The notes: generated by a model from the letters alone, not told the origin. A stretch of DNA of 64,000 nt from Candidatus Omnitrophota bacterium (GCA_018062515.1 JAGOSC010000005.1:880-64879), one strand, 5' to 3'. Positions 17,836 to 39,200 are shown, counted from the stretch's first letter. Numbers and translations: made by a program.

Positions 17836-17982
17836 TCAATATTCGTGCGCACAATCGGCAGGAACAACCGGATTGCCTCGTCTATTTTTATAAGCTTAAT
17901 GCCCAACAATTCATTCCAGATGGATACGAAATTAAGTATAAATTTGATGAAATAAACATGATCGCGATGAAAAAAGAATCCA

Positions 17983-19344: not shown

Positions 19345-19492
19345 TAAAATCTTTATTTATCCGCGCCCAGATAAAGATGATTTATCTTTTAAAAAATCGT
19401 TCTTATCTTTTTAGGATAATCTGCTAAGATAGTTCGTTGTATTTTAGAATAATCGCCACACATAGCATTAACCATAGAGAAAGAGGTCATAT

Positions 19493-19867: not shown

Positions 19868-19883
19868 AATTACAGATACGAAC

Positions 19884-20201
19884 ATGCGTACAGATTTATC
19901 CCGGGAAGAAATCCTTAAATTCCGTCAAGACCGAACGAATTATATTTACGGCGGAACGGTGTACGCGTGCAAATCGGATCCATACGTCATTCTCCCTAAA
20001 AAAATAAAGTGGATGGGATGGACCATCAACATGGGGCATCATGACGCCCTTGCAACGTTGATGCTTATTATTTTATGGACGACGATCCCGGTTCTTTTGG
20101 TGATTTTCTTGTTTCAAAATGTACTCGCTATTTTTATCGCCGTTGTTATCGATACAATTTTATTATGTGCGTGGTGTGCCAAGAAGGCCAAGCTCACGTA
20201 A
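19884..20201 (+). CDS. Small hypothetical membrane protein
   Basis: 105 aa with two C-terminal hydrophobic segments. No family recognised. Confidence 0.35.
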   Translation: MRTDLSREEILKFRQDRTNYIYGGTVYACKSDPYVILPKKIKWMGWTINMGHHDALATLMLIILWTTIPVLLVIFLFQNVLAIFIAVVIDTILLCAWCAKKAKLT

Positions 20202-20207
20202 ATTTTT

Positions 20208-20444
20208 TTGAATGGAAAAACAGACTTTCTTATGGACAACTCATTATTAGAAAAAAAGATTATTGAACTGGAAAAACAAACGGCATTTTTAGACCAATCC
20301 GTCGATGAGCTTACCGAAGTAGTCAATAGTCAGAAGAAATTAATTGATTCCTTAGAAAAGAAGATTGAACAGCTCAGCATGCAGATGAGTGACGAACGTT
20401 TGGTTCGTCCGCTGGATGAAGAAGATAAACCACCGCATTATTGA
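20208..20444 (+). CDS. slyX: SlyX-family coiled-coil protein
   Basis: LEKKIIELEKQTAFLDQSVDELTEVVNSQKKLIDSLEKKIEQL matches the SlyX heptad pattern. The start may be the internal Met at 20232. Confidence 0.6.
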   Translation: MNGKTDFLMDNSLLEKKIIELEKQTAFLDQSVDELTEVVNSQKKLIDSLEKKIEQLSMQMSDERLVRPLDEEDKPPHY

Positions 20445-20453
20445 GAAATTTAT

Positions 20454-21782: not shown

Positions 21783-21822
21783 TTAATTAGTATATCAGTA
21801 TAGATAATTGTTAAAAATATTT

Positions 21823-21851
21823 TTGACAATGGATCGACTTTAATGTATACT
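21823..21851 (+). promoter_or_regulatory. Sigma70-type promoter for the giant-gene operon
   Basis: TTGACA (21823-21828), 17-nt spacer, TATACT (21846-21851). It lies ~170 nt upstream of the ORF A ATG in the only sizeable intergenic gap before the 30-kb cluster. Confidence 0.6.
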
Positions 21852-22018
21852 CGTTTCAATTCAATAAGTAGTTCCAAATTCCCCAATCTTTAGAAGTTAA
21901 ATTTCACCCAACTTTAGTTAATTTTATTTTTTGCAGCGCGTCTTTTTTTTGATGCCCTTTATATTTTTTTGTCAAATTTAGATAAAAATTTGTTTAAACT
22001 ATTGAGAGGAAATGAGTT

Positions 22019-23090
22019 ATGATGATTTTTAAAAGAAATAAAAGAAATTTAACCCGAAAAATAACTTCCACCTTTGTCTTATTTTCATTTATTTTCTCAT
22101 CAATACTACCTCCTCAAGTCTCGGCGCAGAGCGTATTCCATTTACCTATACCTGGGACCCTGTTTAATGTTACAAATACCTTTAATCCTTTTATCATTCA
22201 AGGGCTTACTGTAGATCCGCAAAATCCTCTTCATTTCAGTTTTATTATTGACACCGGCGACACGCAAACAAACGATCCAGACGCTTTCCGCTTAGAATCT
22301 ACAAAACTAGTCAAATATTTCTTAGCATCCTTAACCGTTCCCGAAGATCAAATGTGGGTTAACCTTTCTCCGTATGAAGGCAACCGCATTATTTCGGACA
22401 CATTTGGTCAAACCGAAATGGGCCGTGACTTATTAGCTCAAGATTATATTCTCAAACAAATGTCGGCTTCTTTAACGTATTCAGAAGAAGAATTGGGTGA
22501 AAAATTTTGGCACAGGGTCCACCAACGCGCAAAAAAAGAATACGGCGTTAAAGATATTCCTTTAAATACTTTTAATAAAGTATGGATCATTCCTCAGAAG
22601 GCAACCGTTTATGAACATGACGGCAGCGCGTATGTCGTCAATAGCCGGTTAAAAGTAATGATGGAAGAAGATTACTTAGCCTTAAACAAAAATATCGGTG
22701 AGCAAGCTTTTGGTATGAATAATGTCAAGCAAGATGAGGCGGAATCCACGAGTAAAGTTACTTCCGCCATCATTAAAGAAATTATTATCCCGGAACTCGA
22801 GAAAGAAGTGAATGAAGGCAGCCATTTTGCCAATTTGCGTCAAATTTATCAGTCGATGATTTTAGCGACCTGGTACAAAGTGAATTTAAAAGAATCACTT
22901 TTAGGAAAAGTTTATATTGATCAAAATAAAGTCCAAGGAATTGATTTAAACGACAAAAACGCGAATCAGAAAATTTATGAACAATATTTAGCCGCCTTTA
23001 AAAAAGGTGTTTACAACTATATTAAGGAAGACTACGATTCAGCCACTCATAAGTCAACACCTCGTCAATATTTCGCCGGCGGATTTGTTC
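22019..23090 (+). other. Leader plus shared N-terminal module, copy A (unknown family)
   Basis: MMIFKRNKRNLTRKITSTFVLFSFIFSSILPPQVSA|QS, then LPIPGTLFNV...GLTVDPQNPLHFSFIIDTGD...FLASLTVPEDQMWVNLSPYE...FGQTEMGRDLLAQDYILKQ...NLRQIYQSMILATWYK...AFKKGVYNYIKEDYD...PRQYFAGGF. Colinear with the same region of ORFs B, C and D. Confidence 0.85.
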
Positions 23091-26000
23091 CAAAAACCGA
23101 AGATAATGCGACTTTAGCAGAATTGATCACACGAGAGAAGACCACTCGTTTAGCCGCTACGGATCAGGCAGCTTTAACTCCGAAAGGAAACCAGATTCGA
23201 GCTGATTTCGCTTTATTAGAAGACTTAACCGATGAAGATGCTCCAAAGGTACAAAAACCGATTGAAAAAATTGAAGACGCGCAGATAGCTGTGGACCCTA
23301 ATTGGGTTGAGGACTATTTGGAAAATCTTTTCCCTGAAAACAGCTTTCCTAAACCAGTCAAACAAGAACCAGTCATTATCAGCAAAGAAAGAAAAGAATT
23401 AGAAGACGAATTAATCGCCAATCGTTCTCAATTCTCGGGCTCTAGAATAAATCGGAATATTAAGGAAAAAACAGGGCTTGACGTTCCCGAGGACACTGTC
23501 GATTATTTCGTCGAGCATAGTGGAACCCTCCCTGGATTAAATCACCGTGCTGACCGTTCCCAGGTTATAGGGCAACTTATCCGCAATCATCGTCCTTATG
23601 AAATCTCTAAATTATTTGCCTTATCAGAATCCAAAAATTTTGAAAGAAAATATTATCCTGCCTGGATCCAAGCTTTATCAAAAATATTTACTTTTTTGAA
23701 AGATAAAAATTCAACCATTAATACAGAATTAACCGTTCAAGTCAATTTAGACGGAATTCTTTTAATTAAAGACGGCTCGGGAGAAGAACTCAAGGCGTTT
23801 CAGAAATTGGATCAATTGCACACGGAAAAAGCTTCCGTCGGTGCACTGGCCCTTCAAATTGTCAAATTATTAACCCATGATTACGACGGTTTGGAACTCA
23901 CCAACACTAAAGAATTGTCAGATGATTTAGTATCCATCTTTAATATTTTCGGAATCAAGCCGACGGTGATTAATGATGCGTGGATGCAAACTGTCCTGGG
24001 ATACGGAGATTCTTCATTAAATCTTCAAGCTCTAAAAGAAGGCGTTGAAGTAACTGAAGCTGATGTCGACACTTATCTTTTCCGTCTGGACACAGAAAAA
24101 AGTTTAGCTCGTCAAGCCGGAGAGACTGTATATCTTTCTACGCGCTCAGAAGCCGTCGCTGAAATGATTAAAGAAAATAAATATGATTCTGCTCTTTTAG
24201 CCTCCATCGATGAAAAGGCTTTAACACCGGAAATTCTTACTGCTTTTGGCGGAAATGTAACGGCCGCACAAACGGTCGTGGCCGAGCGTCTTGAGGCTAT
24301 GCGCGTCGCTGATCCGAATGCCACCGTCGAGCAAGCTGTCGCCCGTTTAGCTTGGGAATATAAGCCGCGCGATATTCAAAACGTTTTTCCTGGAGACAAC
24401 TGGAAATTTATGTTTTTGGCCGCCAAAGCCGGCATGAAAGCTCCGATTCTTTTATTAGACTTGGAAGACGCAGTTGCGACAACTCGTAAAGAAATTGCCC
24501 GCGGTGTTATCGTACAATTGATCCGGGCTTTTAAAGGTGAAGGATTAACACAAGATGAATTTGATTTCTTGCAGAAGAACGCGCTTCAGGCTGATGATGA
24601 AAAATATCCGATGACTAGTTTCTTTACACAAAGTCTTGTCGACGGAAAAACTGTTTATACGTTAAATCCTGAAAATCAATTCCATAAAGATCAAATGGTT
24701 CTTTTCCGCCCGAATAATTTAAGAACAAAGTGGTCGGCAGGGGATTATTCTCAAGTTTTTCGTAAAGTCGGTCATTTGGTAGACGGTATTTATATGCCTA
24801 AAGTAGAAGGCCCAGAAGATATCAAAATCGGCGCGTCTATTTTACGCGCCATTCAGAAAGAACAAAACTGGGTCGTTGGTCGTCACAAAATTTTTGTTTT
24901 AACCGAACTTCCCGGCGCTGTTTTGACCGCTGAAAATATTTTAAAAATAGCTCCTGAAGTTGAAGAAGTTCAATTAGGAGTCGTCGATTACACCGCAGCG
25001 ACGGGTGGAAAAAATCAAGTTCAAATCGAACAATTTCCATTTATGCGTTATGCCTTATTACGCTTGGTTGAAGCCGCTAATAATATAGGGAAATCCGCCG
25101 GTTTAGGTATTACCGTTCAATTTACTCCAGAAGCAACAGCCGAGGATACAGTCAAGGCTATTAATATTGGCCTTCATCGCAAATGGAGCGTTCATCCAGC
25201 GCATTTGAAAGGCATGGAATCATTCATCGGAAAATTCCCAAAGATTGTCCGAAAAGATATTCAATATGATGAACTACAAGGATTTGATTTGGTACAGCTA
25301 GATCAATACGCTAGTGAAAGCCGTCCAATTTTAGCTCCTAAAGTTTTAACACCTAAAGATGTGGTTTTATCCAGAGCTGTGGTCACTGTTTCATCCGGAA
25401 ATATTGATGGGCTTAAAAAAGCTCTGGATTCAAATGCTGATACTATTATTTTGGATTTCGGGAAAAAAGAAAATTTGTCTGAAATTAAAAAAATATTAGT
25501 TCAGGCTAAAACAACAAAGAGTATTCTTGTTGTCGATGAGCTTGATTCCCTACAATCAATTAAACAAATTGTAACTGAGTTAAATGGATATTTTCAAGGA
25601 TTTAACCTGAATAACATACAGAATGCATCAACAGTAAGAGATGTGGATGGATTGTTATCAGAAGCAGAAAGTGATTTGGGATTAAACGCAGGCAGCTTAA
25701 AAATTGCCGTCAGCTTTAATGACCCGCAAGTGGTCGAGGAGCAATCCCGCTATCTCGGCACCGATCCAGCTAAAGCTCTTTTGTATTCCAGTCAACGCCT
25801 CAGCTGGGCCATCTTGAATTTGCCTACCATGCCGACTGAAGATTTAGATGATCCGGAAACGAGAGGATACAATTATTATCATTCTTTATTTATTGCCATG
25901 ACCGCTCATGCCGAAGTCGATTCCATCGACGGTTATAGCGCGGATGAGAATTTAACAGAACAAGTTGCGACCTCAGCCATTTGGGGATTTCAAGGAAAAC

Positions 26001-29000
26001 TAGCTAACTTGAATCAAGTTGATGAAATTACTGAAGCCATGAGCCCGCAGCGAGCTGGAATTATGCCAGAATTTTCTACTCCAGAGGAACGTAAAGCTTG
26101 GTTAGCTACTGCCGAAGGAAAAATTTATGTAGCACGTTGGAAAAATTCATTAGAACGAGATTTGGAACTGATGGATCTGTATGCCGAAGCGGATCAAGAA
26201 CGGCAATTAGGTGCGGTAGGTTATAAGGATCCTTTAACCGGCGCTATTGAAATCGTCGACGCTGCTTCAGCTCGAATTCCATTCCGACAATTAGAAAAAG
26301 CTTTAAAGACAAATCAATTAACCGATACGGAAAAAGTTCGATATGCAAAATCACGAGAAAAATTACTTTTAGCCATGCGTCCAGGCGGACGAGAAGGCAG
26401 CGGTGAAAAAGTTTTTGCCGGGCAAAAAATTACAGCTCCGGCCATTGTGATGCGTCCTTGGATGGTTAATGCGTTTGCTAAAGATGGCGATCAAAACCGT
26501 TATCATTTAGATGAAGCTTATGCCAACGCCTCAAAATTTAAAGGATTAGTTGCTCATGGATTATTGACGGTAACTAAGGCTTTAAGTTCTTTAAAAGCTC
26601 AATTACCGGCTTATAAAATTGAAGAAGTCGACGACGCTAAATTCTTAGCTCCTGTACGCTTTAATGATACGATTACCCCGGTCATTGATGTTACGAGTGT
26701 CGACAATGAAAAAGCCAATGTAAAAATTAGTGTAATCAATCAAGACGGAAAAACAGTCAGTGAAATCAAAGTTTTATTAATAGAAAGCACTGATTCTCAA
26801 ATCATTCCAAAAATTAATAATGATTCTTTAAAATCAGCAGAAAAGGTGCCGGCTTCTATTCCGGCCGTCATTTACGATTTTACTGATCCACAAAGTCCTC
26901 GAGAACAAACGTTCAAGCAGGAAATCACATCCAGTTATTTAGAAAATGTTCAAGGATCTAATTTGATTACAAGCCGGGATTTATTAAGTCAATTAGCTGC
27001 CTTTAAAATGATGGCCGGTACTTCCGCCAATGCCGTCCCAGGCCACATATTATTGAATGCAACAAATGTAAAATTCGGAGCTGAAATTCATTTAGGTGAT
27101 GTATTGACCGCCAAAGCTACTGTTCCTGCAGCTGATCAAATTAAATTGACTAAAGACAATCTTCCTAAAGTTCCAGTCACGATTGAAATCACGAATCAAA
27201 ATGGAGAAATGGTTTTAAAAGGACAAGTATTAAAACTCATGGAACCGGGTAAAGATCGAGCGATGCTGGCCAAAAAACCATACCTTCTGCCAAGAGGAAA
27301 AATTGTTACATCGCCGGATGAACTTCCAACACATATGGAAGCATATGTAGTCCGACGCGGTGAGCATGGTGACCCAATTGATGCGTTTAAAAAATCCATT
27401 CAACCCGTTCCCGATGTGGGCGATTATGAAGTCCTTGTCCAAGTTATGGCTGGAGGATTAAATTTTAATGGAACATGGGCCCTTCAAGGTCTTCCCATTT
27501 CTCCATTTACTTATCCTTTGAATAAATTCCACGATGAACAACGCTTAGGTAGTGATGCTTCAGGCATTGTTGTGGCCGTTGGCAAACATGTCACACAATA
27601 TAAAATTGGTGATCAGGTTGTTATGGCTACCGGTGAAGATGACCGCGCTGAAAAAGATCCTGATCATGGCGATACCATGCAAAAACGAACGTTTGTTATC
27701 ACCGGGTATGAAACTCCGGATGGAACGTTCGGTCAATTTGTCGCTTTGGATGAACGTCAAGTACATCCGAAAGAGGCAAATATGACTTGGGAACAAGCCG
27801 CCAGTTATCATTTAGTCGCCGACACAGCTTGGCGAGATATGAAATACAAACTGGGTGTTAAAAAGGGAGATACTGTATTAATCTGGGGGGCATCAACAGG
27901 AGTAGGAGCTTTTAATGTCCAGATCGCTAAATATTTAGGAGCCAAGAATATTGTGGCGGTTGTTTCCAGTGCTTCAAGAGCGGAACAAGCCAGAAAATTC
28001 GGGGCCACTCAAGTGATTAATCGAACTGAACTTCCTAAAATTTTGGGATACAGTGATGCTGAAATTTGGGGTGAACTCTCTAACAATCCCCAAAAGCAGC
28101 AAAAACAAATTGAAATGTTAAATAAGTTCAGAGAATATTTTCTTTCTCTAACGGGTGGTGAATTAGCCGATGCCGTTGCGGAACAAATCGGCCAAACAAC
28201 TTATCCAATTAGTCAATATTTAGCTAAAGATTCCGGAAAAGTCACTCATTTTGCCGGAACATTTGGTTTCAAATTTACCTTTATGGGAAAAGATTTACCG
28301 TTGGATGAGAATACAAAAAAGCAAAAAACGCCACTTCAAATGTTAGAAGAAGCTGGTGTACGCGACGCTAAACGAGTGCTGATATATGGTGCTGATCAAC
28401 TTTCTAAAGAAATTTTTGAGGAAGTTAAAAAATACAGCACTAATATTGCTTTCATCGTTAAAAGCCAAGAAGAACAAAATACAGTCGAAAACTGGGATTT
28501 AGAAAAGACATATATCAAAGGTATTGTAGATTTAAATCCGATTTCTTTTCCTGAAGATATGCCTACACCTCCTCATCCAGACATCCCGGCAGATAAACAG
28601 GCAAAAAATCTTGAAGAATTTAATGAGTATCGTATCAAAGTACTGGATCCAATCCGAGGATCGGTTGTAAAAGCTTTAGGCGGTCAGCCCGACTTAATTG
28701 TTGAAAGAGCGGGGAACAAAAATACTTTGGATATCAGCGTATTTGTCGTGCGTCCTCATGGCGTCGTAACATATGTTGAATCAACAAAAGGAAAACGTTT
28801 AGTCTTTGATGCCCGATTTATTTGGATGTTCCAAAAGCAAATTTATCCTTGGGTTCTTGGGACTCATTATGCGAACCACACACAAACCAAGGAATTAAAT
28901 GATTTAGTTTTAAAAGGCATCATAAGCGTACCTGAACCCGAAGTATTTTCTTGGGATGAATTACCCTTAGCCCAGCAGAAAATGTATGAAAATAAATTAA

Positions 29001-29941
29001 TCGCAACCAAAGCGTCTGTTCTTATCGGAGCTGTTAAACCAGGACTGAAAGGTCTGCCCGAAGAAACTGCGGCAGAACTGCCCATAAAAAACGAAGAGGG
29101 ATTGCTTCCGGCTTTCATGATTACCTCAAAAATCATAGAACCCACCATTTCTGATAATCAAATCAATCTTTATAAGAATCCGGCCATTGATCTATCTGAG
29201 AAATTCGCAATATTAGCTGCTAAATCAAAATTTAAAGACCCAAATAGCGCCCTAGGAATGTATGCCTTGGAAACAAAGGCATTTATACCTGCCATTGTTG
29301 AAAAAGTTTTCGGGAACACGGCGGAATTAGGGGAATTTAAATTAAAGGGGTTTACATCATTTGCTCCTAGCGGATTAGATGCTAATGATCAAATTCGAAC
29401 GACATTGCAAGTAAGCCGCAATTTTAAGATCGACGGGGATGATGTATACCTTAATGCCCGTATATCTTTGGATAAATTTTTTGTCGATTCCGGAAAATGG
29501 AAAGAGTTGTTGGTCGGAAATCAAATACTAAAAATGCCAATTAACGACTTAAACTCTTTAGGTTTTTACTTACCGTCTGAAAAAATTGACTCCGCTTTGA
29601 TTGGAGAAAAAAACGATGTTAGCCTGAATAATAATATCGCTGAATCCAAAAAAGAATACGGCGGTATTGACTTTAATTCAAAATTTTTGAATCTTCAGAT
29701 CAAGCGTGATGGACGAGGAATTCCATTGCCGGTGAATCAGCAGCCATTGATGAACATTCACATCAATGGATTTTATCCGGTTCTCATTGAAACAATGCCG
29801 ATTAATTTACCATTGATTCTCGGTTTAGAGACGGAAGAAGAAGATTCGAATTCAAGAACTCAACAAAGTTCACTTGATCCTTTGCATAAACAAGAAGACA
29901 TACGTATCGAAGATTTAGAAACAGCCAGCATACTAAACTAA
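22019..29941 (+). CDS. Giant fusion protein A (2640 aa): leader + shared N module + 2x CitE/HpcH-like lyase + 2x MaoC hot-dog + crotonyl-CoA carboxylase/reductase-like MDR + shared C module
   Basis: Uninterrupted 7.9-kb ORF in AT-rich DNA. GAGGAA lies 8 nt upstream of the ATG. Domain motifs are listed in the sub-features. Confidence 0.9.
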   Translation: MMIFKRNKRNLTRKITSTFVLFSFIFSSILPPQVSAQSVFHLPIPGTLFNVTNTFNPFIIQGLTVDPQNPLHFSFIIDTGDTQTNDPDAFRLESTKLVKYFLASLTVPEDQMWVNLSPYEGNRIISDTFGQTEMGRDLLAQDYILKQMSASLTYSEEELGEKFWHRVHQRAKKEYGVKDIPLNTFNKVWIIPQKATVYEHDGSAYVVNSRLKVMMEEDYLALNKNIGEQAFGMNNVKQDEAESTSKVTSAIIKEIIIPELEKEVNEGSHFANLRQIYQSMILATWYKVNLKESLLGKVYIDQNKVQGIDLNDKNANQKIYEQYLAAFKKGVYNYIKEDYDSATHKSTPRQYFAGGFVPKTEDNATLAELITREKTTRLAATDQAALTPKGNQIRADFALLEDLTDEDAPKVQKPIEKIEDAQIAVDPNWVEDYLENLFPENSFPKPVKQEPVIISKERKELEDELIANRSQFSGSRINRNIKEKTGLDVPEDTVDYFVEHSGTLPGLNHRADRSQVIGQLIRNHRPYEISKLFALSESKNFERKYYPAWIQALSKIFTFLKDKNSTINTELTVQVNLDGILLIKDGSGEELKAFQKLDQLHTEKASVGALALQIVKLLTHDYDGLELTNTKELSDDLVSIFNIFGIKPTVINDAWMQTVLGYGDSSLNLQALKEGVEVTEADVDTYLFRLDTEKSLARQAGETVYLSTRSEAVAEMIKENKYDSALLASIDEKALTPEILTAFGGNVTAAQTVVAERLEAMRVADPNATVEQAVARLAWEYKPRDIQNVFPGDNWKFMFLAAKAGMKAPILLLDLEDAVATTRKEIARGVIVQLIRAFKGEGLTQDEFDFLQKNALQADDEKYPMTSFFTQSLVDGKTVYTLNPENQFHKDQMVLFRPNNLRTKWSAGDYSQVFRKVGHLVDGIYMPKVEGPEDIKIGASILRAIQKEQNWVVGRHKIFVLTELPGAVLTAENILKIAPEVEEVQLGVVDYTAATGGKNQVQIEQFPFMRYALLRLVEAANNIGKSAGLGITVQFTPEATAEDTVKAINIGLHRKWSVHPAHLKGMESFIGKFPKIVRKDIQYDELQGFDLVQLDQYASESRPILAPKVLTPKDVVLSRAVVTVSSGNIDGLKKALDSNADTIILDFGKKENLSEIKKILVQAKTTKSILVVDELDSLQSIKQIVTELNGYFQGFNLNNIQNASTVRDVDGLLSEAESDLGLNAGSLKIAVSFNDPQVVEEQSRYLGTDPAKALLYSSQRLSWAILNLPTMPTEDLDDPETRGYNYYHSLFIAMTAHAEVDSIDGYSADENLTEQVATSAIWGFQGKLANLNQVDEITEAMSPQRAGIMPEFSTPEERKAWLATAEGKIYVARWKNSLERDLELMDLYAEADQERQLGAVGYKDPLTGAIEIVDAASARIPFRQLEKALKTNQLTDTEKVRYAKSREKLLLAMRPGGREGSGEKVFAGQKITAPAIVMRPWMVNAFAKDGDQNRYHLDEAYANASKFKGLVAHGLLTVTKALSSLKAQLPAYKIEEVDDAKFLAPVRFNDTITPVIDVTSVDNEKANVKISVINQDGKTVSEIKVLLIESTDSQIIPKINNDSLKSAEKVPASIPAVIYDFTDPQSPREQTFKQEITSSYLENVQGSNLITSRDLLSQLAAFKMMAGTSANAVPGHILLNATNVKFGAEIHLGDVLTAKATVPAADQIKLTKDNLPKVPVTIEITNQNGEMVLKGQVLKLMEPGKDRAMLAKKPYLLPRGKIVTSPDELPTHMEAYVVRRGEHGDPIDAFKKSIQPVPDVGDYEVLVQVMAGGLNFNGTWALQGLPISPFTYPLNKFHDEQRLGSDASGIVVAVGKHVTQYKIGDQVVMATGEDDRAEKDPDHGDTMQKRTFVITGYETPDGTFGQFVALDERQVHPKEANMTWEQAASYHLVADTAWRDMKYKLGVKKGDTVLIWGASTGVGAFNVQIAKYLGAKNIVAVVSSASRAEQARKFGATQVINRTELPKILGYSDAEIWGELSNNPQKQQKQIEMLNKFREYFLSLTGGELADAVAEQIGQTTYPISQYLAKDSGKVTHFAGTFGFKFTFMGKDLPLDENTKKQKTPLQMLEEAGVRDAKRVLIYGADQLSKEIFEEVKKYSTNIAFIVKSQEEQNTVENWDLEKTYIKGIVDLNPISFPEDMPTPPHPDIPADKQAKNLEEFNEYRIKVLDPIRGSVVKALGGQPDLIVERAGNKNTLDISVFVVRPHGVVTYVESTKGKRLVFDARFIWMFQKQIYPWVLGTHYANHTQTKELNDLVLKGIISVPEPEVFSWDELPLAQQKMYENKLIATKASVLIGAVKPGLKGLPEETAAELPIKNEEGLLPAFMITSKIIEPTISDNQINLYKNPAIDLSEKFAILAAKSKFKDPNSALGMYALETKAFIPAIVEKVFGNTAELGEFKLKGFTSFAPSGLDANDQIRTTLQVSRNFKIDGDDVYLNARISLDKFFVDSGKWKELLVGNQILKMPINDLNSLGFYLPSEKIDSALIGEKNDVSLNNNIAESKKEYGGIDFNSKFLNLQIKRDGRGIPLPVNQQPLMNIHINGFYPVLIETMPINLPLILGLETEEEDSNSRTQQSSLDPLHKQEDIRIEDLETASILN
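24360..25230 (+). other. CitE/HpcH-family (malyl-CoA lyase / citrate lyase beta-like) domain 1
   Basis: APILLLDLEDAVA, LFRPNNL, IYMPKVEGPEDI, IFVLTELPGAV, LGVVDYTAATGG, WSVHPAHL. This is colinear with CitE-family motifs from memory. Boundaries are approximate. Confidence 0.6.
25350..26060 (+). other. Second, degenerate CitE-like domain
   Basis: SRAVVTVSSGNIDGLKKALDSNADTIILDFGKKEN, where the DLEDAV-type motif is replaced, and later IWGFQGKLANLNQVDEITEAMSP (compare GF.GK..IHP.QV). Boundaries are approximate. Confidence 0.45.
26400..27240 (+). other. Tandem MaoC-like hot-dog (enoyl-CoA hydratase/dehydratase) domains
   Basis: DGDQNRYHLDEAYANASKFKGLVAHGLLT is the MaoC signature D.NP.H.D...A....F...IAHG. 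A second hot-dog-like half follows (...GHILLNATNVKFGAEIHLGDVLTAKATV). Confidence 0.65.
27330..29040 (+). other. Crotonyl-CoA carboxylase/reductase-like medium-chain reductase domain with an internal insertion
   Basis: EVLVQVMAGGLNFNGTWAL, LGSDASGIVVAVGKHVTQYKIGDQVV, ETPDGTFGQFVALDERQVHPK, GDTVLIWGASTGVGAFNVQIAKYLGAKNIVAVVSSASRAEQARKFGA. All are colinear with Ccr-type sequences as I remember them. It is ~120 aa longer than stand-alone Ccr. Confidence 0.65.
29657..29835 (+). other. Shared C-terminal module, copy A
   Basis: YGGIDFNSKFLNLQIKRDGRGIPLPVNQQPLMNIHINGFYPVLIETMPINLPLILGLE, followed by a polar/acidic ~35-aa tail. Confidence 0.85.
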
Positions 29942-29957
29942 TAAGGGACGCAGCTAA

Positions 29958-31000
29958 GTGATTAATCAATTTAAGAAGTTTCAGCCACGATTTGCTTATA
30001 AATTATTCTGTGCGGTCATCAATGTTGCGTTTATTTCAACTTCGGTTCTCCCACCGAGTTATGCTCAGGTTTTACCAACCGCATTTGCATTACCGCAACC
30101 CGGGGCAATGGTTAACCTAACGGAGAAGTTTATGCCGGTCATCGTGCGCGGCATAACCATTCATCCTGAAAATCCGCTTATGTTTGATTTTATGGTGGAT
30201 CAAGGCGACACAACTCTTGATGCGACCGCCCTCAAAAACGAATCGTTAAAACTAATTAAATACTTTCTCGCTTCCTTGACCATTCCAGAAAAGGAAATGT
30301 GGGTCAATCTTTCTCCGACGGAAAAAGATAGAATTATTCCTGATTCGTTTGGAGAAACCGAAATGGGACGGGATCTCTTAGCCCAAGATTATGTTCTCAA
30401 ACAGTTGACGGCCTCTTTGATGTATCCGGAAAAAGAATTAGGCCAAAAATTCTGGCAGCGCGTCCGTGAACGGGCGAAATCCGAATATGGTCTAACAGAT
30501 ATTCCGATGGATACATTTAATAAGGTATGGATTGTGCCTAAATCAGCGGTTGTTTTTGAAGGTAAAAATTCTGCCTTTGTCGTTGAGAGTGAGTTGGACG
30601 TCATGCTTGAAGAAGAGTATTCCCAGTTAGATGGTGTCATCCAGGCTCAAGGTTCCTCGTCGATAAAAAGTAGTTCAGCAAAAGAAATTATTAAAGAAGT
30701 CATTTTACCGGAAATCAAAAAAGAAGTTAACACGGGAGAGACTTTTGCGAATTTGCGTCAGATTTATAATTCCATGATCTTGGCTTCCTGGTATAAAGAT
30801 AATTTAAAAAAGAGTCTTTTAGGACAAGTATACGTCGATCAGAATAAAATACGCGGCATTGATGTTGAGGATAAAAATGTCAAACTAAAGATTTACGACC
30901 AATATATGAAGGCCTTTAAAAAAGGTGTTTACAACTATATAAGAGAAGATTATGACTCAGCATCTAAGAAAATGGTTCCGAGAAGATATTTTTCCGGTGG
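29958..31000 (+). other. Leader plus shared N-terminal module, copy B
   Basis: ..INVAFISTSVLPPSYA|QV, LPQPGAMVNL..GITIHPENPLMFDFMVDQGD..FLASLTIPEKEMWVNLSPTE..FGETEMGRDLLAQDYVLKQ..NLRQIYNSMILASWYK..AFKKGVYNYIREDYD..PRRYFSGG. Confidence 0.85.
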
Positions 31001-34000
31001 GGAAACATTTACAAATTTAAAAATCACTCGCCAGGATATAGATGATTCCGGGATGCTAAGCGCTTCACAAAAAGATGCAATGAATCCGGGTAATACCGAC
31101 GTCATTGTGACAGTAGCGTTAGCTGACTTTGGAAGCAATGTCGATACGACAACTTTAAAACAAGCCGCAAAAGAACTCAATGAAGATCAATCCATGGTTG
31201 GCGAAAATCCTGAGAATAAAAAGGGAATAACCGGAGGATTTTTAACGGACGGCAATTTGGTTGTATATGATAATCCTAAAATTGTCCTTTATCCGGAAAA
31301 TGTTAAAGATCATCCTGATGTCGACACAATGTATCAAATGTTTGAATCCATCTTGGGTCAAAATTCTGAAATTGTACAATCAGTGGGTGAAAGGATTGAC
31401 ACGAAAGAAATTCACGTCGAAGAACCATATGAAGTTACCGTTAACGGGAAAAATGAATCACGAGAAAGTTTAATTAAACAATTAGGCGGTTTAGGTCTTT
31501 TAGGCATGTCGGTACCGGCTGAATATCGAACCGTTGAACTCGGTGGTGATGGTAAAAAGGCCTTCCCTAAAATTGTTAAATCATTGGCGGATAAATGGGC
31601 ATGGTATGGGAACGCGTCTATTGGATCGCTGGTGCGTGTTCATGGCGGCGTGTCTACATTTCCAATTTTAATTTACGGAACGGAAGAACAAAAGAAAAAA
31701 TATTTGCCAAAATTAGCCTCGGGAGAAATGATCGGCGCTTATGCGTTGACGGAATCGAATCATGGGTCTGATACTCTTAATCAGGAAACTGTATTTGATA
31801 CCACCGGGGTTATCGTCGAGCAAGATGGCAAAAAGTATGTAAAAATAAATGGTTCAAAACAATATATTACCAATACACGTTTTGCGGATATTTTCACCGT
31901 GTTTGTGTCTGTCCAAAATCCTGAATGGAATAAGGATCAACCAGACGCAGCCCCACAATGGTTAAAAAGCGTTTTTGTCGTTGAGAAGAAAGATTCCACA
32001 CCGGATACTTTTTCATTTGGACCCGAAATGGAAAAAATTGGGCTTCCCGGATCTGCGACCCAAGAAATATTTTTTAATGATTTACTGATACCGATGGACA
32101 ACCTTTTAGGCAAATTAGGCCAAGGCGATAAAATCGGCATGAGTATTCTTAATTATGGACGATTAGCGATTGGCGCCGGATCTTTAGGCGGAAGCCAACG
32201 TATTCTCGATGAGAGTATACGCTGGATCCTTACTCGTCAGCAATTCGGACATCCCTTGGCCGACTTTAGCGCTGTTCAAACCAATATCGCCGAAATGGAA
32301 GCGAATATTTATGCGATGGAAGCCTTGGTTTATGCCGTCAGCGCGTTATTAGATAACAATGAAGCACCGGGGTTAGAAGCATCAATAGCCAAGGTCTGGG
32401 GGTCCAACACATTTCAGAAAATTGCCCAGATGGGTGTCAATCTGCGTGATGATGAAGGTTTTCTCAAATCAACGCATGTTAACCGCATACTCGGTGATTC
32501 CGTTGTCATGTCTATTTTTGAAGGGGCGAATGAAGTTCTTTCGTCACAGGTCATCGCCGCTTTATCCATGAAATACTTAGACAAAAAAGATAAATTATTA
32601 GGCAGCTGGACAATCCCTCAAGATAGCCCTGTTTACGACGAGAGTTTGCATATAAAACAGGCTGCCGAAACAATTATGCAAGCCAAGGATAAATTGATTA
32701 AAACCTACGGAACGACGTCGGTCTTGCGGGAGCGCGGGAAAGAACATCTTCAAGAATATTTTAATGCATTTGGATTAATGATCGCCGATCTGTACGTATT
32801 AGTGAATACGCTTAATCGAACACATCATTTGCTTTTGTCAAATCCTCAATCACAACATGAAAGGAATTTAGCTAAATTGGTTGTTGAAGAAGGTATTCGT
32901 CGAATCGAAAGCAATGCCGGGCTCATCTTGACTCAGGATGAAATTAAACTAGTTAATCTGGGTACCGAAAGCCCTGTGGAGCTCAAAATACAAGTAGCAA
33001 AACATATTTTAGAGAATAATAAATTTATGACGTGGACCCCTGCGACAGCCACCGACGAAGAAATAGTGAGTACGGAAGGCGCAAAACCGGTATCAACATT
33101 CCTCTTTAGTGGTCAAAAAGGTGAATACCCGGAATCAGCTTTACCATTTATGGAAGATAATGAGCAGTTTGCTGAAGGCCCGATGTACGAAGGTCTTAAA
33201 GAAATTTTCGCGGATATGGTCGTTTCTAAACAGATTAATAAAAATTTGGATGAAGGCCATTTAAAACTCACGCAGATTTGGGACGAACTGAAAGAATTAG
33301 GCCTTTTTGATCCGGAATACTCTACCATTGTAAAAAATTGGGTGAATCAATTTGCGGCATATGCCAGCCCGTCGCTAGGACTTACTTTAGCCGTTCATAA
33401 CGGCGTAGGTTCTATGCCCATTAAACTTTTTGGAAGTGATGCGCAGAAGGAAAAATATTTACCGCTATTTAACTCTGGTGAAAATATCGCGGCCATGGCC
33501 ATCACGGAAAAAGAGCATAACTCAGATATTTATTCTGACAATACGGTATTAGAAACGACCGCCACGCCCATCACCGACGAGAATGGAACGATTGTTTCTT
33601 ACCAAATCAAGGGTTCAAAAGATTATGTGATTAATGCGAGTGACAACAGCATATATATTATCTTAGCTTCGGTTTTGAATGAATCACAAGGAAAACAAAA
33701 ATCTTTATTTATCGTCGAGCATAACGATACTGGAAAAATTTCGGTCACAGAACAAAAAAATAAAATGGGTTTGAGATCAGCTATGACCGCGGTTGTTGAT
33801 TTTAATATCACCGTTCCGGCAGACCGCATGATCGGTGAGGCGGATCAAAGCGATATGATCAACCAAAACATTCAAGGTTATACGTGGACTGCTTTGGGTT
33901 CCATTTATTTAGGCGCCAGTGACATTGCGTTTAAAGAAACTTTAAAGTACGTAACTCAGCGCAAACAATTTTCCTACAAAAAAGATAATGTTTTAAAAAG

Positions 34001-35141
34001 AAAATTCATCGCGGATTTCGGTGCCGTACAAATATCCTTAGCCAACTCAGAAGCCATGTTATACGCCTTGGAATCGATGGTCTATGCTGTCAATGCAGAA
34101 TTTGATAGCGGCCGTAATCCCGTTTTTGAATCAGCTATTTTGAAAGTGATCGGGACAAACACATTCCAGGATATTGCCCGTCAAGGTGTGCAAAAACACG
34201 GCGGCATGGGTTTCGGGCGGGAAACGGAAGTCGCTAAATATTTCGAAGATTCCATCGCACTCGCGCAGATTGGCGGATCAAATAATGTCCTATTAGGTGT
34301 TGTTATCGGCCCCTTGGGATTAACGGCTTTAAAAGAAAATTCCGGCCTGAGCATTTTGGAAAACTGGAATATTCCGGAAGGCCCGTTGACGGATGATGTC
34401 CTTAGAATAAAAGTAGCCGCTAAAACTATTTTGAATATGGTGAGTGAATTTGAAAAACGCGGCATTACGAAAAATAACCCTTCCGCCAGTATATATTTTC
34501 ACCTGCTTGGAGAAATGTTTGTCCAACTCTATGTGATGACCACGACGGTGAACCGCACTCAACATCGTTTAGATAAGGGCATGGATTCTGCGCATGAAAT
34601 TGGTTTAACAAAAACCATTGTCATTGACGGGATACAAAAAATACAAAAATTAGCGCAAGAATTACGTATTTCTGCGCCATCCACGCCATCCCTAAACAGT
34701 GATCAATTGGTGGCCTTGAAAACAGAAATCGCGGAATCAACATTAGAACGCACGACCGATTGGGAAAAACCACAAACAGAAAAAGATATAGCCATGGTGG
34801 CAGAAACCGAAGATCCATACTTGATGAATAAAGCAGATCTCAATACACCGTCGACAAAAGATAAGGTAGGGGGTATTAATTTAGACCGTTCCTTACTGAA
34901 TATGCAAATCCTCCGGGATGAGGGCGGTGTTCCTCTTCCGCTCGACGATCAACCGCTTTTGGAAATGAATATCGAAGGGTTTATTCCGGTGATCATTCAA
35001 ATTACACCGGCTCTAAATGTGCCTTTATTGTTGGGGTTAGCCGGTGAAAAGAAAGATTCAAATTCAAACAGCCAACGCGGTTCGCTAGACCCTTTGCAAA
35101 AAAAAGAGCATATGCTTGTAGAATATGAGGAACGCAGCTAA
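29958..35141 (+). CDS. Giant fusion protein B (1727 aa): leader + shared N module + two acyl-CoA dehydrogenase units + shared C module
   Basis: GTG start 16 nt after the ORF A stop, preceded by AGGGA. 5.2-kb open frame. Motifs are in the sub-features. Confidence 0.88.
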   Translation: MINQFKKFQPRFAYKLFCAVINVAFISTSVLPPSYAQVLPTAFALPQPGAMVNLTEKFMPVIVRGITIHPENPLMFDFMVDQGDTTLDATALKNESLKLIKYFLASLTIPEKEMWVNLSPTEKDRIIPDSFGETEMGRDLLAQDYVLKQLTASLMYPEKELGQKFWQRVRERAKSEYGLTDIPMDTFNKVWIVPKSAVVFEGKNSAFVVESELDVMLEEEYSQLDGVIQAQGSSSIKSSSAKEIIKEVILPEIKKEVNTGETFANLRQIYNSMILASWYKDNLKKSLLGQVYVDQNKIRGIDVEDKNVKLKIYDQYMKAFKKGVYNYIREDYDSASKKMVPRRYFSGGETFTNLKITRQDIDDSGMLSASQKDAMNPGNTDVIVTVALADFGSNVDTTTLKQAAKELNEDQSMVGENPENKKGITGGFLTDGNLVVYDNPKIVLYPENVKDHPDVDTMYQMFESILGQNSEIVQSVGERIDTKEIHVEEPYEVTVNGKNESRESLIKQLGGLGLLGMSVPAEYRTVELGGDGKKAFPKIVKSLADKWAWYGNASIGSLVRVHGGVSTFPILIYGTEEQKKKYLPKLASGEMIGAYALTESNHGSDTLNQETVFDTTGVIVEQDGKKYVKINGSKQYITNTRFADIFTVFVSVQNPEWNKDQPDAAPQWLKSVFVVEKKDSTPDTFSFGPEMEKIGLPGSATQEIFFNDLLIPMDNLLGKLGQGDKIGMSILNYGRLAIGAGSLGGSQRILDESIRWILTRQQFGHPLADFSAVQTNIAEMEANIYAMEALVYAVSALLDNNEAPGLEASIAKVWGSNTFQKIAQMGVNLRDDEGFLKSTHVNRILGDSVVMSIFEGANEVLSSQVIAALSMKYLDKKDKLLGSWTIPQDSPVYDESLHIKQAAETIMQAKDKLIKTYGTTSVLRERGKEHLQEYFNAFGLMIADLYVLVNTLNRTHHLLLSNPQSQHERNLAKLVVEEGIRRIESNAGLILTQDEIKLVNLGTESPVELKIQVAKHILENNKFMTWTPATATDEEIVSTEGAKPVSTFLFSGQKGEYPESALPFMEDNEQFAEGPMYEGLKEIFADMVVSKQINKNLDEGHLKLTQIWDELKELGLFDPEYSTIVKNWVNQFAAYASPSLGLTLAVHNGVGSMPIKLFGSDAQKEKYLPLFNSGENIAAMAITEKEHNSDIYSDNTVLETTATPITDENGTIVSYQIKGSKDYVINASDNSIYIILASVLNESQGKQKSLFIVEHNDTGKISVTEQKNKMGLRSAMTAVVDFNITVPADRMIGEADQSDMINQNIQGYTWTALGSIYLGASDIAFKETLKYVTQRKQFSYKKDNVLKRKFIADFGAVQISLANSEAMLYALESMVYAVNAEFDSGRNPVFESAILKVIGTNTFQDIARQGVQKHGGMGFGRETEVAKYFEDSIALAQIGGSNNVLLGVVIGPLGLTALKENSGLSILENWNIPEGPLTDDVLRIKVAAKTILNMVSEFEKRGITKNNPSASIYFHLLGEMFVQLYVMTTTVNRTQHRLDKGMDSAHEIGLTKTIVIDGIQKIQKLAQELRISAPSTPSLNSDQLVALKTEIAESTLERTTDWEKPQTEKDIAMVAETEDPYLMNKADLNTPSTKDKVGGINLDRSLLNMQILRDEGGVPLPLDDQPLLEMNIEGFIPVIIQITPALNVPLLLGLAGEKKDSNSNSQRGSLDPLQKKEHMLVEYEERS
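31330..32580 (+). other. Acyl-CoA dehydrogenase domain 1
   Basis: LGLLGMSVPAEY, GAYALTESNHGSD, INGSKQYITN, RQQFGHPLADF, IFEGANEV (the Y-E-G-T-type position keeps the Glu). Boundaries are approximate. Confidence 0.7.
33200..34330 (+). other. Acyl-CoA dehydrogenase domain 2 (divergent)
   Basis: ELGLFDPEYS, AAMAITEKEHNSD, IKGSKDYVINA, RKQFSY. The C-terminal motif reads AQIGGSNNV, where ACADs of the MCAD type have Y-E-G-T. Confidence 0.6.
34866..35045 (+). other. Shared C-terminal module, copy B
   Basis: VGGINLDRSLLNMQILRDEGGVPLPLDDQPLLEMNIEGFIPVIIQITPALNVPLLLGLAGE, followed by a polar tail. Confidence 0.85.
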
Positions 35142-36200
35142 GTGATTATTCAGTTTAAAAAATTCCAGTTAAAATTTACCTATAAATTTCTTTGTACGGT
35201 TATCAATATTGCGTTTATCTCGACTTGTGTTCTACCGCCGAGCTATGCTCAGGTTTTATCTTTACCCCAACCTGGAACCATGCTGAATGTAAGCCCGGTT
35301 TATACTCCGCCCATGATCAAAGGACTGACCATTGATCAAGAAAACCCGCTGCATTTTCAATTTATTATTGATACTGGAAATGAACAATATAAAGATAATG
35401 ATCAGCTTCGAGAAGAATCAACACGCTTAATTAAATATTTCCTTGCTTCGTTAACAGTTCCTGAAAATGAAATGTGGGTGAACCTTTCACCCCATGAAAA
35501 AGACCGCATTATTCCCGACGGGTTCGGCCAAACCGAAATGGGCCGTGACCTTTTAGCCCAGGATTATATTTTAAAACAACTCACCGCGTCATTGATTTAT
35601 CCTGAAAAAGAATTAGGGGCTGAGTTTTGGAAAAAAGTGCATGACCGCGCTTGGAAAGAATTTAAAACAAAAGAAATTCCATTGGATACATTTAATAAGG
35701 TTTGGATTGTTCCGGAAAAAGCAGTGATTTATGAACATGAAAGAAGCGCTTATGTTCTGGAAAGTCATTTAAAGGTCATGTTGGAAGAAGATTATCAAGC
35801 ACTTATATCCAATACTTCGTCGACATCCGCGGACAATCAAAAATTAAAAGATGATAATCGGCAACTGACAGCGTCGATCATGAAAGAAATTATTATTCCG
35901 GAAATCGAACGGGAAGTTAATGAAGGTAAAAATTTCACAAATCTACGCCAAATTTACCAGTCGATGATTTTAGCGACGTGGTACAAGATGAACTTAAAAG
36001 AGTCATTACTTGGACAAATTTACGTCGATCAGAATAAACTCATAGGGATTGATCTCGACGATAAGAATGTTAAAGACAAAATTTACGCGCAGTATATAGA
36101 AGCCTTTAAAAAAGGTGTTTATAACTATATCAAAGAAGATTATGATCCTGACCAGCAAAAGACCGTTCCTCGTCAATACATTTCGGGCGGTTTCTCGACG
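35142..36200 (+). other. Leader plus shared N-terminal module, copy C
   Basis: ..INIAFISTCVLPPSYA|QV, LPQPGTMLNV..GLTIDQENPLHFQFIIDTGN..FLASLTVPENEMWVNLSPHE..FGQTEMGRDLLAQDYILKQ..NLRQIYQSMILATWYK..AFKKGVYNYIKEDYD..PRQYISGGF. Confidence 0.85.
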
Positions 36201-39200
36201 GTAGGAAAAGATAACGCAACGCTCGTTGATCTCGTTGGCCGAGAAATCATTAAGTCCAGCGCCGGCTATGTGAGCGCGGATCAATATAAACGTATTTCCA
36301 AAGGACTTAAACCCAGCGGTGATCAATTCAGAACAGATGTTCAATTATTAGAAAACGGAAATAATGGAATTATTAACGCCGATCAATCCATGCTGGTTAA
36401 GATCGACGATGCTTTACAAAAAAATCCTTCTCAAAAAGTTCATACGGTTAAAGGATACACACCGGCTGGAAATCCAATTGAAGATGTTCTTACATATCAG
36501 GATATCAGCGACCAATCCAATCAATTTGCCCATGTATTAAAAAATGCGGGGATTGAAAAAGGCGACCGTGTGGCTGTTATGTCGCCGGTCTCAGGTTTGG
36601 AAATGATCGCGTCTTTGGGAATTTGGAAAGCCGGGGCAGTACGTGTACCGTTTAAAACCCAATGGACGTCGAATGAAATTAAAAAATATTTGACCCAAAC
36701 CACGCCTGAAGCGATGGTTATTCTAAATGTGTATTACGATCAACATTTATTGTCAATTTTAAATGAATTTAAAGATTTAAAAGTTTATATCATTTCTTCC
36801 GGCGAAACTATTTCTTCAACACCTCACGTCATGACTTTTCAAAATAGTTTAATCAATCAAACAACGGATTTCTTAAATATTTCTTCCGATCCGAGGGATT
36901 TAGTCCAATTGGCTATTTCCACCGGAACAACCGGTGAATCAAAAATTGTAAAGCAAACACAAGAAAACTTTTATTTCAGTACGCAAGAGTATAGTGAGTG
37001 GCTTGATGATGCTCCTCAAGGCCCTGTCGTCAGCACTTTACCGCCGGGAACGTACGGAAGCCATAGTATTTTAGGAACTGTTCTGCGAGGACGTCCGTTA
37101 TATATCGTTCCCCGTTTACCCAAAAATCAAACGACCGATGAATATACCCAGACATTATCGGAAACATTGAAGAGAACAAACGCGAAAATTTTATTCGGCG
37201 TTCCAACGCAATTTCAGGCTTTAGCCATGACGGGAGAAAAATTCCCCGGCCTTATTGGTTTAAGCCGAGGAGCCGCGTTAAGAGATGTAAAACAATTATT
37301 TGAGTCGGTGACCGGAGGACGGGTTATCGAAGGTTATGGATTGACAGAAGGAACCAGTTCAGTCACCAATCCGATTAATAGAGATAAGCCGGGTACCGTC
37401 GGAATTCCGTCAAAAGATACGACATTTAAAGTCATTAATCCATCCACGCAAAAAGAACTTCCCATTGGTGAAGAAGGTGAATTAGTGTTAAAAGGCCCGC
37501 AGGTTATGGCCGGATATTGGGAAGATCCTGTGGGCACTAAAGCCGCTTTTACAGAAGATGGATTTTTAAGGACCGGCGATTTGGGCTCCATCGACAAAGA
37601 TGGTTATATAAAAATCACCGGCCGCTTAAAAGACATTATTATTTCCGGCGGTGATAATGTCATTCCGTCGGAGGTAGAAAAAATTATTAAAACCAACGCC
37701 GCTATCGAAGAAGTTACCGTCGTCGGTATAAGTGATCCTGGCCGTTTTCCTGATGATCCGGCATTTGCTGAGCTCGTTGAACATTGGGGGGAAGTTGTTG
37801 TCGCGTTTGTCGTCCCGAAAAAGGGCATGAATACTTTAAATTTAGAGCCATCCATACGAGAATTTGCCAAAAAGAATTTGGCTGCTTATAAAGTCCCCAA
37901 AAAAGTTGTTGTCCTCAATAAACTGCCTCTGCTAGGAGACCTTTTTAAAATTGACCGTCAACAACTCATCCGAGGCGACAATGACAATGCTGTTTTAGTT
38001 ATTCCTTCAGCCATCAAGAATATAGAAAATATAAAAGCCAAATTAGTGTTAAATTTTATGATAAATGAGACTTTAAGAAATGGTTTAATTTCCCAAATTG
38101 ATGGCGAAAAACTTATTCCTTCTGTGGCCATTGATGATGAACAAATAACAGTTGCAAAAAAAGTCAGCGATGAAGAATATGAACTATCCGGAACGAAGGC
38201 GGCTGTTGTCAATGGAGGCCGGGCTTCTTTTTATATTGTATTTGCGCAGCTCAACGGAAAATCAAAAGCGTTCTTAGTCGACAATCCAAAAGGGATAACC
38301 AAAAAATCTGTTCCCACCATGGGCTTGGCTGAAAATAATATTGCTCAAGTTCAGTTTAACCGTGTTAGAGCCAAACTCATCACTGATAATTTAGACGATT
38401 CCGAAATACTTAAAGCTGTACAAAATAAAGAAAATAAAATCATTCGAGCCCTGGCTATTTCCGAAGCCCAAAGGATATATAAAATGGGCGAGAAATATGC
38501 CGCCGAAAGACGCGCCTTTGGACAATCCATCAATAAATTCCCATCTTTAAAACGATTAATGGATGGTATTCAAACGGATGTAGAAAACATCAATGCATCC
38601 CCGAATCCAACCGCCATGCTGGTTGATATAGCCAACCGTGTCCTTCAAATTTTTGCGGCGCGCGGATTTGAAAATAATACGCCGGCTGTAAAAATCTGGC
38701 GTGAGGCACAGGCCCTACATGCCATTGTCACTTATCGGCAATCTTTAACAAAAACAACTCCGGAAAACATATCTCTTGACCCTGAAGAGGTATTTAAAAA
38801 AGGTTCATGGGAAGATTTTGGATTAACACCGGATCAGATTTCTCTAAAATCGAAAATTCGCAATTTTGCGGAAAATATCGTCGCGCCAATGTATGAAGAG
38901 CTTGATCGTGATGGACAGTATCCGCTTTCTATATTGAAGAAAATGGGGGATGCCGGCATTACAAAACCCGGTTATCCAAAAGAAGTTGGCGGTGAAGAAG
39001 CTGACACATTAAGCTGGGCCATCGTCGTCGAGGAACTGGTTAAAGCGGCTCCGGCCTTCGGTATATTTTCCGGTGTTCCGCACACGGCTTCCGTTCCAAT
39101 TCTCAAATCCGGCACTCCCGAACAGAAAGAAATTGTCGCGCAAGTTGTCCGCGGAGAAATTCCTCTATCTTACGGACAGAGCGAACCTCACAGCGGATCG

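Follow-up and report, generated by a model that had tools for sequence, protein, structure and literature searches.

Mosaic or gene-conversion tracts between tandem paralogues are known, for example from the duplicated tuf genes and from surface-protein gene families. Translationally coupled gene junctions are a second familiar arrangement, in which the stop and start codons overlap or abut (UGAUG, AUGA), the Shine-Dalgarno (SD) sequence lies inside the upstream open reading frame (ORF), and translation proceeds by termination and reinitiation. Here we describe two gene junctions in a 64,000-nucleotide (nt) stretch of DNA from Candidatus Omnitrophota bacterium (GCA_018062515.1, JAGOSC010000005.1:880-64879), referred to below as the window, with all positions counted from its first letter. 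Four long genes, ORFs A to D, follow one another in this stretch, and the A/B and B/C boundaries carry the same 17-nt sequence, ACGCAGCTAAGTGATTA, which runs into the GTG start of the downstream gene. We place the junction with both arrangements, as a tract of mosaic or gene-conversion type shared by neighbouring paralogues and as a compact, possibly coupled boundary within an operon. Its only unusual trait is that the tract straddles a gene boundary. Our comparisons point, with better than even confidence, to the two 17-mers being the core of a paralogous junction cassette of roughly 220-250 nt, which would have been copied within the operon and then partly deleted in its B/C copy.

As in described gene-conversion tracts, a short segment at these junctions is far more similar than its flanks and ends at a sharp edge (codon 40 of the downstream gene), and the paralogues lie a few kb apart on one strand. 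Unlike them, the A/B-B/C tract crosses from the 3' tail of one gene into the 5' head of its neighbour, and it is old (77% identity) and not near-identical. The resemblance to coupled junctions lies in the spacing: at B/C the TAA stop abuts the GTG, at A/B the gap is 16 nt, and in both cases an SD-like purine run is found 9-10 nt upstream of the start. A homologous array in a distant Omnitrophota metagenome-assembled genome (L003; GCA_041643075.1, JBGGHH010000506.1) likewise has a junction with overlapping stop and start. The locus differs from coupled junctions in that GTG starts are in the minority in the protein family concerned, and in that the B/C abutment looks like the by-product of a deletion rather than a designed feature.

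The four ORFs share a common architecture. Each opens with a signal-peptide-like head (basic N-terminus, hydrophobic stretch, ..PPSYAQ) and continues into an N-domain of about 320 amino acids (aa), which is 52-64% identical among A-D; after the enzymatic cargo come a C-motif of about 55 aa, with the consensus GGI[DN]L..LQIKRDG.G.PLP..GF.PVII..P..LP.LLG, and a variable acidic tail. One N-domain and one C-motif are present in each ORF (family N-domain profile, E 1e-177 to 1e-186; C-motif, E 1e-28 to 1e-35). The genes, their stops and the two 17-nt copies are placed as follows.

22019-29941, plus strand: ORF A, ATG start, 2640 aa; head and N-domain, HpcH/HpaI lyase-like, MaoC and Ccr-like reductase cargo, C-motif and tail
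29939-29944, plus strand: double stop TAA TAA of ORF A, first TAA at 29939-29941 and second at 29942-29944
29948-29964, plus strand: first 17-nt copy; 10 nt of A/B intergenic spacer, ACGCAGCTAA, and GTGATTA (ORF B codons 1-2 and the first base of codon 3)
29958-35141, plus strand: ORF B, GTG start, 1727 aa; head and N-domain, two acyl-CoA dehydrogenases, C-motif and truncated tail (..EYEERS)
35132-35148, plus strand: second 17-nt copy; last base of a Glu codon and Arg-Ser-stop of ORF B, then GTGATTA of ORF C
35139-35141, plus strand: in-frame TAA, the sole separator of ORF B and ORF C, read directly from the sequence
35142-45560, plus strand: ORF C, GTG start, 3472 aa; head and N-domain, acyl-CoA ligase, acyl-CoA dehydrogenase, B12-dependent mutase, C-motif and canonical tail (..EDLSYLN)
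45567-52088, plus strand: ORF D, ATG start, 2173 aa; head and N-domain, carboxyltransferase, cNMP-binding domain, C-motif and tail

Neither the N-domain nor the C-motif matched any entry in Pfam, NCBIfam or the PDB sequences. The N-domain nevertheless defines a family with 8247 representatives of 50%-identity clusters (E <=0.001), and in its other members the cargo includes glycolytic, glycogen, glyoxylate-cycle and regulatory domains. Constant ends around different cargo are the rule of the whole family and no invention of the A-D array. All four ORFs belong to this undescribed N-domain/C-motif family of "capped enzymes" of Omnitrophota.

The 17-nt identity, first pointed out in an earlier note on this DNA, was borne out by direct reading of both sites, which are the only matches to the 17-mer in the window even when up to three mismatches are allowed. 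Both junctions are also present in an independent Logan assembly of SRR11088468 (L001), which matches window positions 28440-43610 at 100% identity over 15,171 nt, and the pair is therefore not an assembly artefact. The reading frames agree with that note as well: at B/C, CGC AGC TAA (35133-35141) forms the last codons of ORF B and the GTG of ORF C abuts it at 35142, while at A/B the same nine bases (29949-29957) lie beyond the stop of ORF A, in the +1 frame relative to ORF A and in frame with the ORF B GTG at 29958.

The match is embedded in a longer tract of homology, which the earlier note had described as the tail of one gene plus the head of the next. This description holds, with homology crossing the junction on both sides, and the tract can now be delimited.

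29825-30074, plus strand: junction cassette A/B, 250 nt; ORF A tail after the LLG motif, TAA TAA, gap with AGGGA, GTG, and ORF B codons 1-39
35037-35258, plus strand: junction cassette B/C, 222 nt; ORF B tail, TAA abutting GTG, and ORF C codons 1-39

Aligned without gaps from -24 to +117 around the two GTGs, the cassettes are identical at 109/141 positions, with exact runs of 17, 15, 10 and 8 nt, and the B-vs-C similarity drops sharply past the ..SYAQVL codons. Further upstream the tails of A and B are identical at 70/102 nt (..DSNS..SLDPL.K.E..), up to a 28-nt gap; 3' of these 28 nt, which only A/B has, TAATAAGGGACGCAGCTAA aligns with TA-TGAGGAACGCAGCTAA. The first 3 of the 16 nt that separate the ORF A stop from the GTG are the second TAA, and at B/C the corresponding gap is 0 nt.

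The similarity of the cassettes is out of step with that of the conserved cores on either side. Over residues 1-40, the heads of B and C share 0.76 identity, against a family median of 0.32. In 20-residue windows the pair ranks 1/190 twice, with 0.65 at residues 1-20 and 0.75 at 21-40 (family medians 0.20 and 0.40); from residue 41 it is at or below the family median, the next three windows ranking 113, 165 and 169 of 190, and the boundary of high similarity lies near codon 40. The N-domain cores (aa 41-355) of A-D show 0.58-0.66 mutual identity, and their median identity to homologues from other genomes is 0.62. The B and C cores in particular are 0.61 identical, compared with the family median of 0.62, and the best core matches of B come from other genomes (0.65). 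A head identity of 0.70 or more was seen in only 9 of the 13,510 family pairs with core identities of 0.55-0.66.

The same discordance holds on the upstream side. Tail identity between A and B, at the amino-acid level, is at the 99th percentile of 6216 family pairs, whereas their C-motif cores (0.50-0.51) are below the family median and that of B is closer to foreign proteins (0.70); tails as alike as these occur in only 5/2165 pairs with C-core identity <=0.60. Third-position identity is 0.44-0.47 in all N-domain pairs, which are therefore old paralogues. These observations fit a cassette that is younger than the flanking cores, its head and tail having a history different from theirs. Since the fast-evolving head and tail are more alike than the cores, the opposite of what whole-module duplication would lead one to expect, we favour local duplication or gene conversion over whole-module tandem duplication with replacement of the cargo. 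The C-core of ORF A is closest to that of C while its tail resembles that of B, which makes a mosaic of the 3' end of ORF A; such a patchwork suggests repeated exchange among the ends of the array. At the nucleotide level, the A and C C-motif cores (29655-29826 and 45295-45466) are 76-77% identical, above any N-domain pair. Genome-wide homogenisation of heads was considered and rejected: the heads of A and D are unlike those of B and C, and in 5/6 same-contig pairs from other genomes head identities are 0.21-0.50.

One segment is present in only one of the two cassettes.

29912-29939, plus strand: 28-nt segment found at A/B only and absent at B/C; encodes ..DLETASILN and the first stop base, and was presumably deleted in the B/C copy

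The commonest C-terminus of the family is ..REPEE[IV]SxLN, with an LN end in 23/176 C-motif proteins and the runner-up dipeptide only 6 times. In one example from another genome (L084; GCA_040960315.1), the sequence reads ..GAG CCG GAA GAG ATT AGC GCG TTG AAT TAA, with a spacer of 22 nt before ATG ATC ACA. The canonical ending is found in ORF A (..EDLETASILN TAA TAA) and in ORF C (..PEDLSYLN TAA TAA, the two stops at 45558-45563); ORF B ends without it (..EYEERS TAA), and ORF D ends in ..YPS. The codons of the canonical ending fall exactly within the A-only 28 nt, and homology resumes on both sides of them. Because this segment encodes the commonest family ending, also present in ORF C, we think it fairly likely that the A/B state is ancestral and that the 28 nt were lost at B/C. 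The sequence CGCAGCTAA would then probably be a former spacer captured as coding sequence in ORF B. The earlier note had taken the A/B copy for a non-coding relic; the polarity is probably the reverse.

Based upon these comparisons, we propose that the cassette consists of the acidic variable tail of the upstream gene, the stop codon or codons, an SD-like site with its 10-nt spacer, the GTG, and a signal-peptide-like head of about 40 codons. Through local duplication or gene conversion, long after the cores had diverged, one such cassette would have come to occupy another junction in the operon as well, with the conserved C-domain and N-domain cores as the likely homology arms. The original would have been A/B-like, and its B/C copy would then have lost about 28 nt (27 + 1), a deletion that took both stops along with the canonical ..SxLN ending and put the frame out by one. 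ORF B would now read through the former spacer (..E-E-R-S) and stop at the TAA that formerly stood just ahead of the GTG, so that the deletion would account both for the stop/start abutment and for B and C lying in one frame. In its present role the cassette would provide the translation-initiation region of B and C in a co-transcribed A-B-C-D operon, with downstream initiation probably by the ordinary SD-dependent route and/or by termination-reinitiation.

In this account the 17-nt identity, the span of the cassette, its discordance with the cores, the indel and the canonical family tail are observed, whereas the recombination mechanism, the direction of the indel, co-transcription and coupling are inferred. 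Several points weigh against it. Among conserved residues, the head has 19/29 identical codons and the core 90/184 (Fisher p = 0.11); third positions in the head are identical at 25/40, against a background of about 0.47. As the codon excess in the head is not significant by itself, the younger status of the cassette rests mainly on the comparison with the family distribution. The flanking cores, at 65-77% identity, are poor substrates for RecA-type recombination, though exact runs of 20-29 nt exist among them. In addition, an alternative alignment sets the EYEERS of ORF B directly against the canonical EPEEIS, and this would favour the reading of the A/B copy as a relic. Finally, our searches found no orthologous array in a close relative, so the direction of the 28-nt indel is without a true outgroup: a scan of genome contigs with the ORF B cargo returned only a Helicobacter acyl-CoA dehydrogenase (ACAD), a search with full-length ORF B gave a best non-self match of 41% identity (P0122) whose array, L003, has other junctions, and a search with the B/C head alone yielded no candidates.

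If the two junctions were unrelated, the match would be a matter of chance or of constraints on start regions. GTGATTA does encode the family-typical M-I start, and one exact copy of the 17-mer occurs in an unrelated GC-rich viral contig of IMG/VR, a match that we took as chance; but two copies were found in 0/100 dinucleotide shuffles of the window, and the similarity extends about 100 nt upstream and about 117 nt downstream. Coincidence is effectively refuted by this flanking homology, and we give it almost no credence. For unrelated DNA such a match would far exceed chance; these sites are paralogous, however, and an exact run of 17 nt or more arises in about 40% of simulated tracts of matching length and identity (109/141, ~77%). 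Exact runs of 18-20 nt are also found elsewhere in the B-vs-C N-domain coding alignment, and the sole special trait of the 17-mer is that 10 of its 17 nt lie upstream of a start codon. Alternatively, the 17-mer, or the 10 nt 5' of the GTG, might be a discrete cis-element kept identical by selection, such as an RNA structure, a processing site, or a stand-by site for a regulator or the ribosome. The 10 nt, non-coding at A/B, are identical where a third-position identity of about 0.46 would make this improbable (0.46^10 = 4e-4), and ACGCAGC is GC-rich for a window of 40% GC. At the local identity of 77-79%, however, the probability is ~0.09 for ten identical bases and ~0.4 for a run of 17 or more anywhere in the tract. 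The junctions have no Rfam match and no stable fold (z = +0.14 and +0.27, the two folds differing from each other), and the region upstream of A and the C/D junction share nothing with the 17-mer. We therefore regard selection on such an element as very unlikely and, judging from the alignments, read the 17-mer as the best-preserved stretch of a paralogous junction tract and not as a separate element. Eight family-family junctions from other genomes held no conserved junction sequence (spacers of -4 to 132 nt), and the regions upstream of 83 N-domain starts had only generic AAGGAG- or GGAGA-type SD sites. The earlier note had held that a lack of junction conservation in related arrays would mean coincidence; the conservation is indeed lacking, but coincidence does not follow, the match being one of paralogy within the genome. 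The only Rfam matches in the window are three tRNAs (2013-2086 and 13647-13717 on the plus strand, 63240-63326 on the minus strand).

Paralogy could also have arisen on a larger scale, as the earlier note supposed, by tandem duplication of whole modules with the unit boundary inside the cargo and later replacement of that cargo; B/C would then be ancestral and CGCAGCTAA at A/B a frameshifted relic. Homology on both sides of the junction would follow naturally, as would two terminal domains common to all four genes, and the in-place alignment of E-Y-E-E-R-S with E-P-E-E-I-S also speaks for it, with AGC as the Ser codon in A, B and L084 alike. Against this, the cores of the units are not mutual closest relatives but stand at the family background, and the cassettes show the reverse of the predicted order, in which head and tail would be less similar than cores. 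Variable cargo between constant ends is seen family-wide, and the A-only 28 nt form a canonical ending, beyond what random insertion makes. The nucleotide self-comparison that the earlier note had suggested gave no similarity among the cargo of A-D: in a self-blastn of 21719-52388 only the N-domains (67-75%) and one C-domain pair (A vs C, 77% over 172 nt) were recovered. Growth of the array by whole modules thus seems to us unlikely, though clearly the strongest of the competing accounts. The remaining possibility is that B, C and perhaps D are one polyprotein, the TAA being read through, recoded or a recent nonsense mutation and the junction a linker between modules. B, C and D do lie in one frame with a lone TAA between B and C, and very long multi-enzyme proteins are reported from Omnitrophota in a recent preprint (bioRxiv 10.64898/2026.06.07.730766). 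ORF C, however, has a full signal-peptide-like head of its own with an SD-like site before it, two TAA codons stand in a row at C/D, and TAA is the commonest stop in the window (26/37). Moreover, each of the best 150 of the 8247 family representatives, those of more than 5000 aa included, carries one N-domain, always at its N-terminus, and the idea that the very long proteins are in-frame concatenations of such modules finds no support there; for P0240 and P0244, two to three N-domain stretches were taken, uninspected, as one split match. A polyprotein is accordingly highly improbable.

The preferred reading, a copied junction cassette, places a translation start in each copy, and the note's assignment of GTG starts is supported by the family N-terminus and by two gene callers. 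The GTGs of B and C are the first start codon after an in-frame stop, they yield the family-canonical N-terminus M-I-x4-K..Y-K/R at residues 14-15 (compare MITYIEKRR..), and both PGAP and the Logan gene caller pick them. ATG prevails among the 83 family N-domain starts from other genomes, and GTG is a minority trait shared by B and C. Two SD-like sites, identified by pattern only, precede the starts.

29944-29948, plus strand: SD-like AGGGA, 9 nt upstream of the ORF B GTG
35127-35131, plus strand: SD-like GAGGA, inside the end of ORF B and 10 nt upstream of the ORF C GTG
21823-21851, plus strand: candidate operon promoter upstream of ORF A, the best sigma-70-like site of the region by consensus scan (TTGACA-17-TATACT, 11/12)

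Located at -15 to -11, both SD-like motifs are similar to the sites of other window genes, which are commonly separated by short gaps or overlap. No SD-like site could be recognised 5' of the ORF D ATG. The same kind of consensus scan, applied to A/B and B/C but not to C/D, found no plus-strand promoter-like site above 9/12 near either junction and no terminator-like site between the genes. The genes are most likely expressed as an A-B-C-D operon in which initiation depends on the SD sites, perhaps with termination-reinitiation at B/C as well. From the SD-like sites and the tight spacing, translational coupling at the junctions is plausible; we infer it, like co-transcription, from these features.

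ORFs B, C and D share one frame (B/TAA/C at 35139-35144; C/TAA TAA ACC/D at 45558-45569), and single-codon changes would fuse genes of 5-10 kb. More generally, a 28-nt deletion can make a spacer coding and leave two 5-10-kb genes one stop codon from fusion. Taken alone the junction is of little weight, amounting to one local recombination event, one deletion and reasonable support for two GTG starts. It does mark the way in which the family evolves, with variable tail and head having a history separate from that of the domain cores.

The pairing of tail and head at these joints recalls the assembly lines of polyketide synthases and nonribosomal peptide synthetases (PKS/NRPS), where consecutive polypeptides carry matched C- and N-terminal docking domains. 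By analogy, at A/B and B/C the coding sequences for one protein's tail and the following protein's head adjoin and would be inherited together as a unit. The analogy has limits, in that the A-D heads resemble a Sec signal peptide rather than a docking helix, and the B tail is without the canonical end. It is conceivable, if rather doubtful, that the cassette is a portable joint, and that recombination between C-motif and N-domain cores moves joints and so reshuffles family genes into Omnitrophota pathway operons. In a stronger version, the tail of protein i and the head or N-domain of protein i+1 may be matched to each other and so set the order of the proteins in an assembly. If the joint were portable, it would provide a mechanism by which Omnitrophota bring cytoplasmic-type enzymes together in pathway operons, in a family of at least 8000 cluster representatives whose members have at one end an N-domain with a signal peptide and an unrecognised fold and at the other the C-terminal motif.

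The family is noteworthy in its own right: thousands of Omnitrophota proteins combine enzymes of glycolysis, glycogen and glyoxylate metabolism and CoA-ester chemistry with an export-type signal and two uncharacterised terminal domains, which raises the question of where and how these cells run central metabolism. According to two preprints, very long multi-enzyme proteins of Omnitrophota bear signal peptides or transmembrane segments (bioRxiv 10.64898/2026.06.07.730766; bioRxiv 10.1101/2023.11.21.568195). Proteins A-D are like those described there in coming from the same phylum and in having metabolic enzyme domains in long chains after a predicted signal peptide, but they are shorter, at 1.7-3.5 thousand aa against 10 thousand aa or more. 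Term searches of these two preprints turned up neither the ~320-aa N-domain nor the ~55-aa C-motif.

The cargo of A-D (22019-52088) jointly resembles an ethylmalonyl-CoA-type set: a Ccr-like reductase, a malyl-CoA-lyase-like HpcH/HpaI protein, a MaoC hydratase, three acyl-CoA dehydrogenases, an acyl-CoA ligase, a B12-dependent acyl-CoA mutase and a carboxyltransferase. The crotonyl-CoA carboxylase/reductase-like domain of ORF A scores 342 bits with TIGR01751, below the cut-off of 378, and the mutase of ORF C comes with a B12-binding domain. A full-text literature search found no paper tying an ethylmalonyl-CoA-type pathway to Omnitrophota. The array of L003 (positions 1-22026) is comparable, with the cargo partitioned differently (malate synthase, enolase and PGK; HpcH and MaoC; ACADs, mutase and B12; AprA-like), and the overlapping stop and start noted above reads GTGATG. 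In L084 (positions 10001-22337), the adjacent proteins P0180, with PGI cargo, and P0165 have a head identity of 0.70 and a 22-nt spacer between their genes. Their tails are near-identical and canonical, ending in ..MKAREPEEISALN and ..MKAREPEEVSYLN, and this pair may reflect a duplication like that of the A-B-C cassette, only more recent. The array itself is flanked by a BrkB-like membrane protein (20454-21782) on one side and by a SUI1-type translation factor (52781-53143) and a serpin (53849-55177; Pfam E = 3e-127) on the other.

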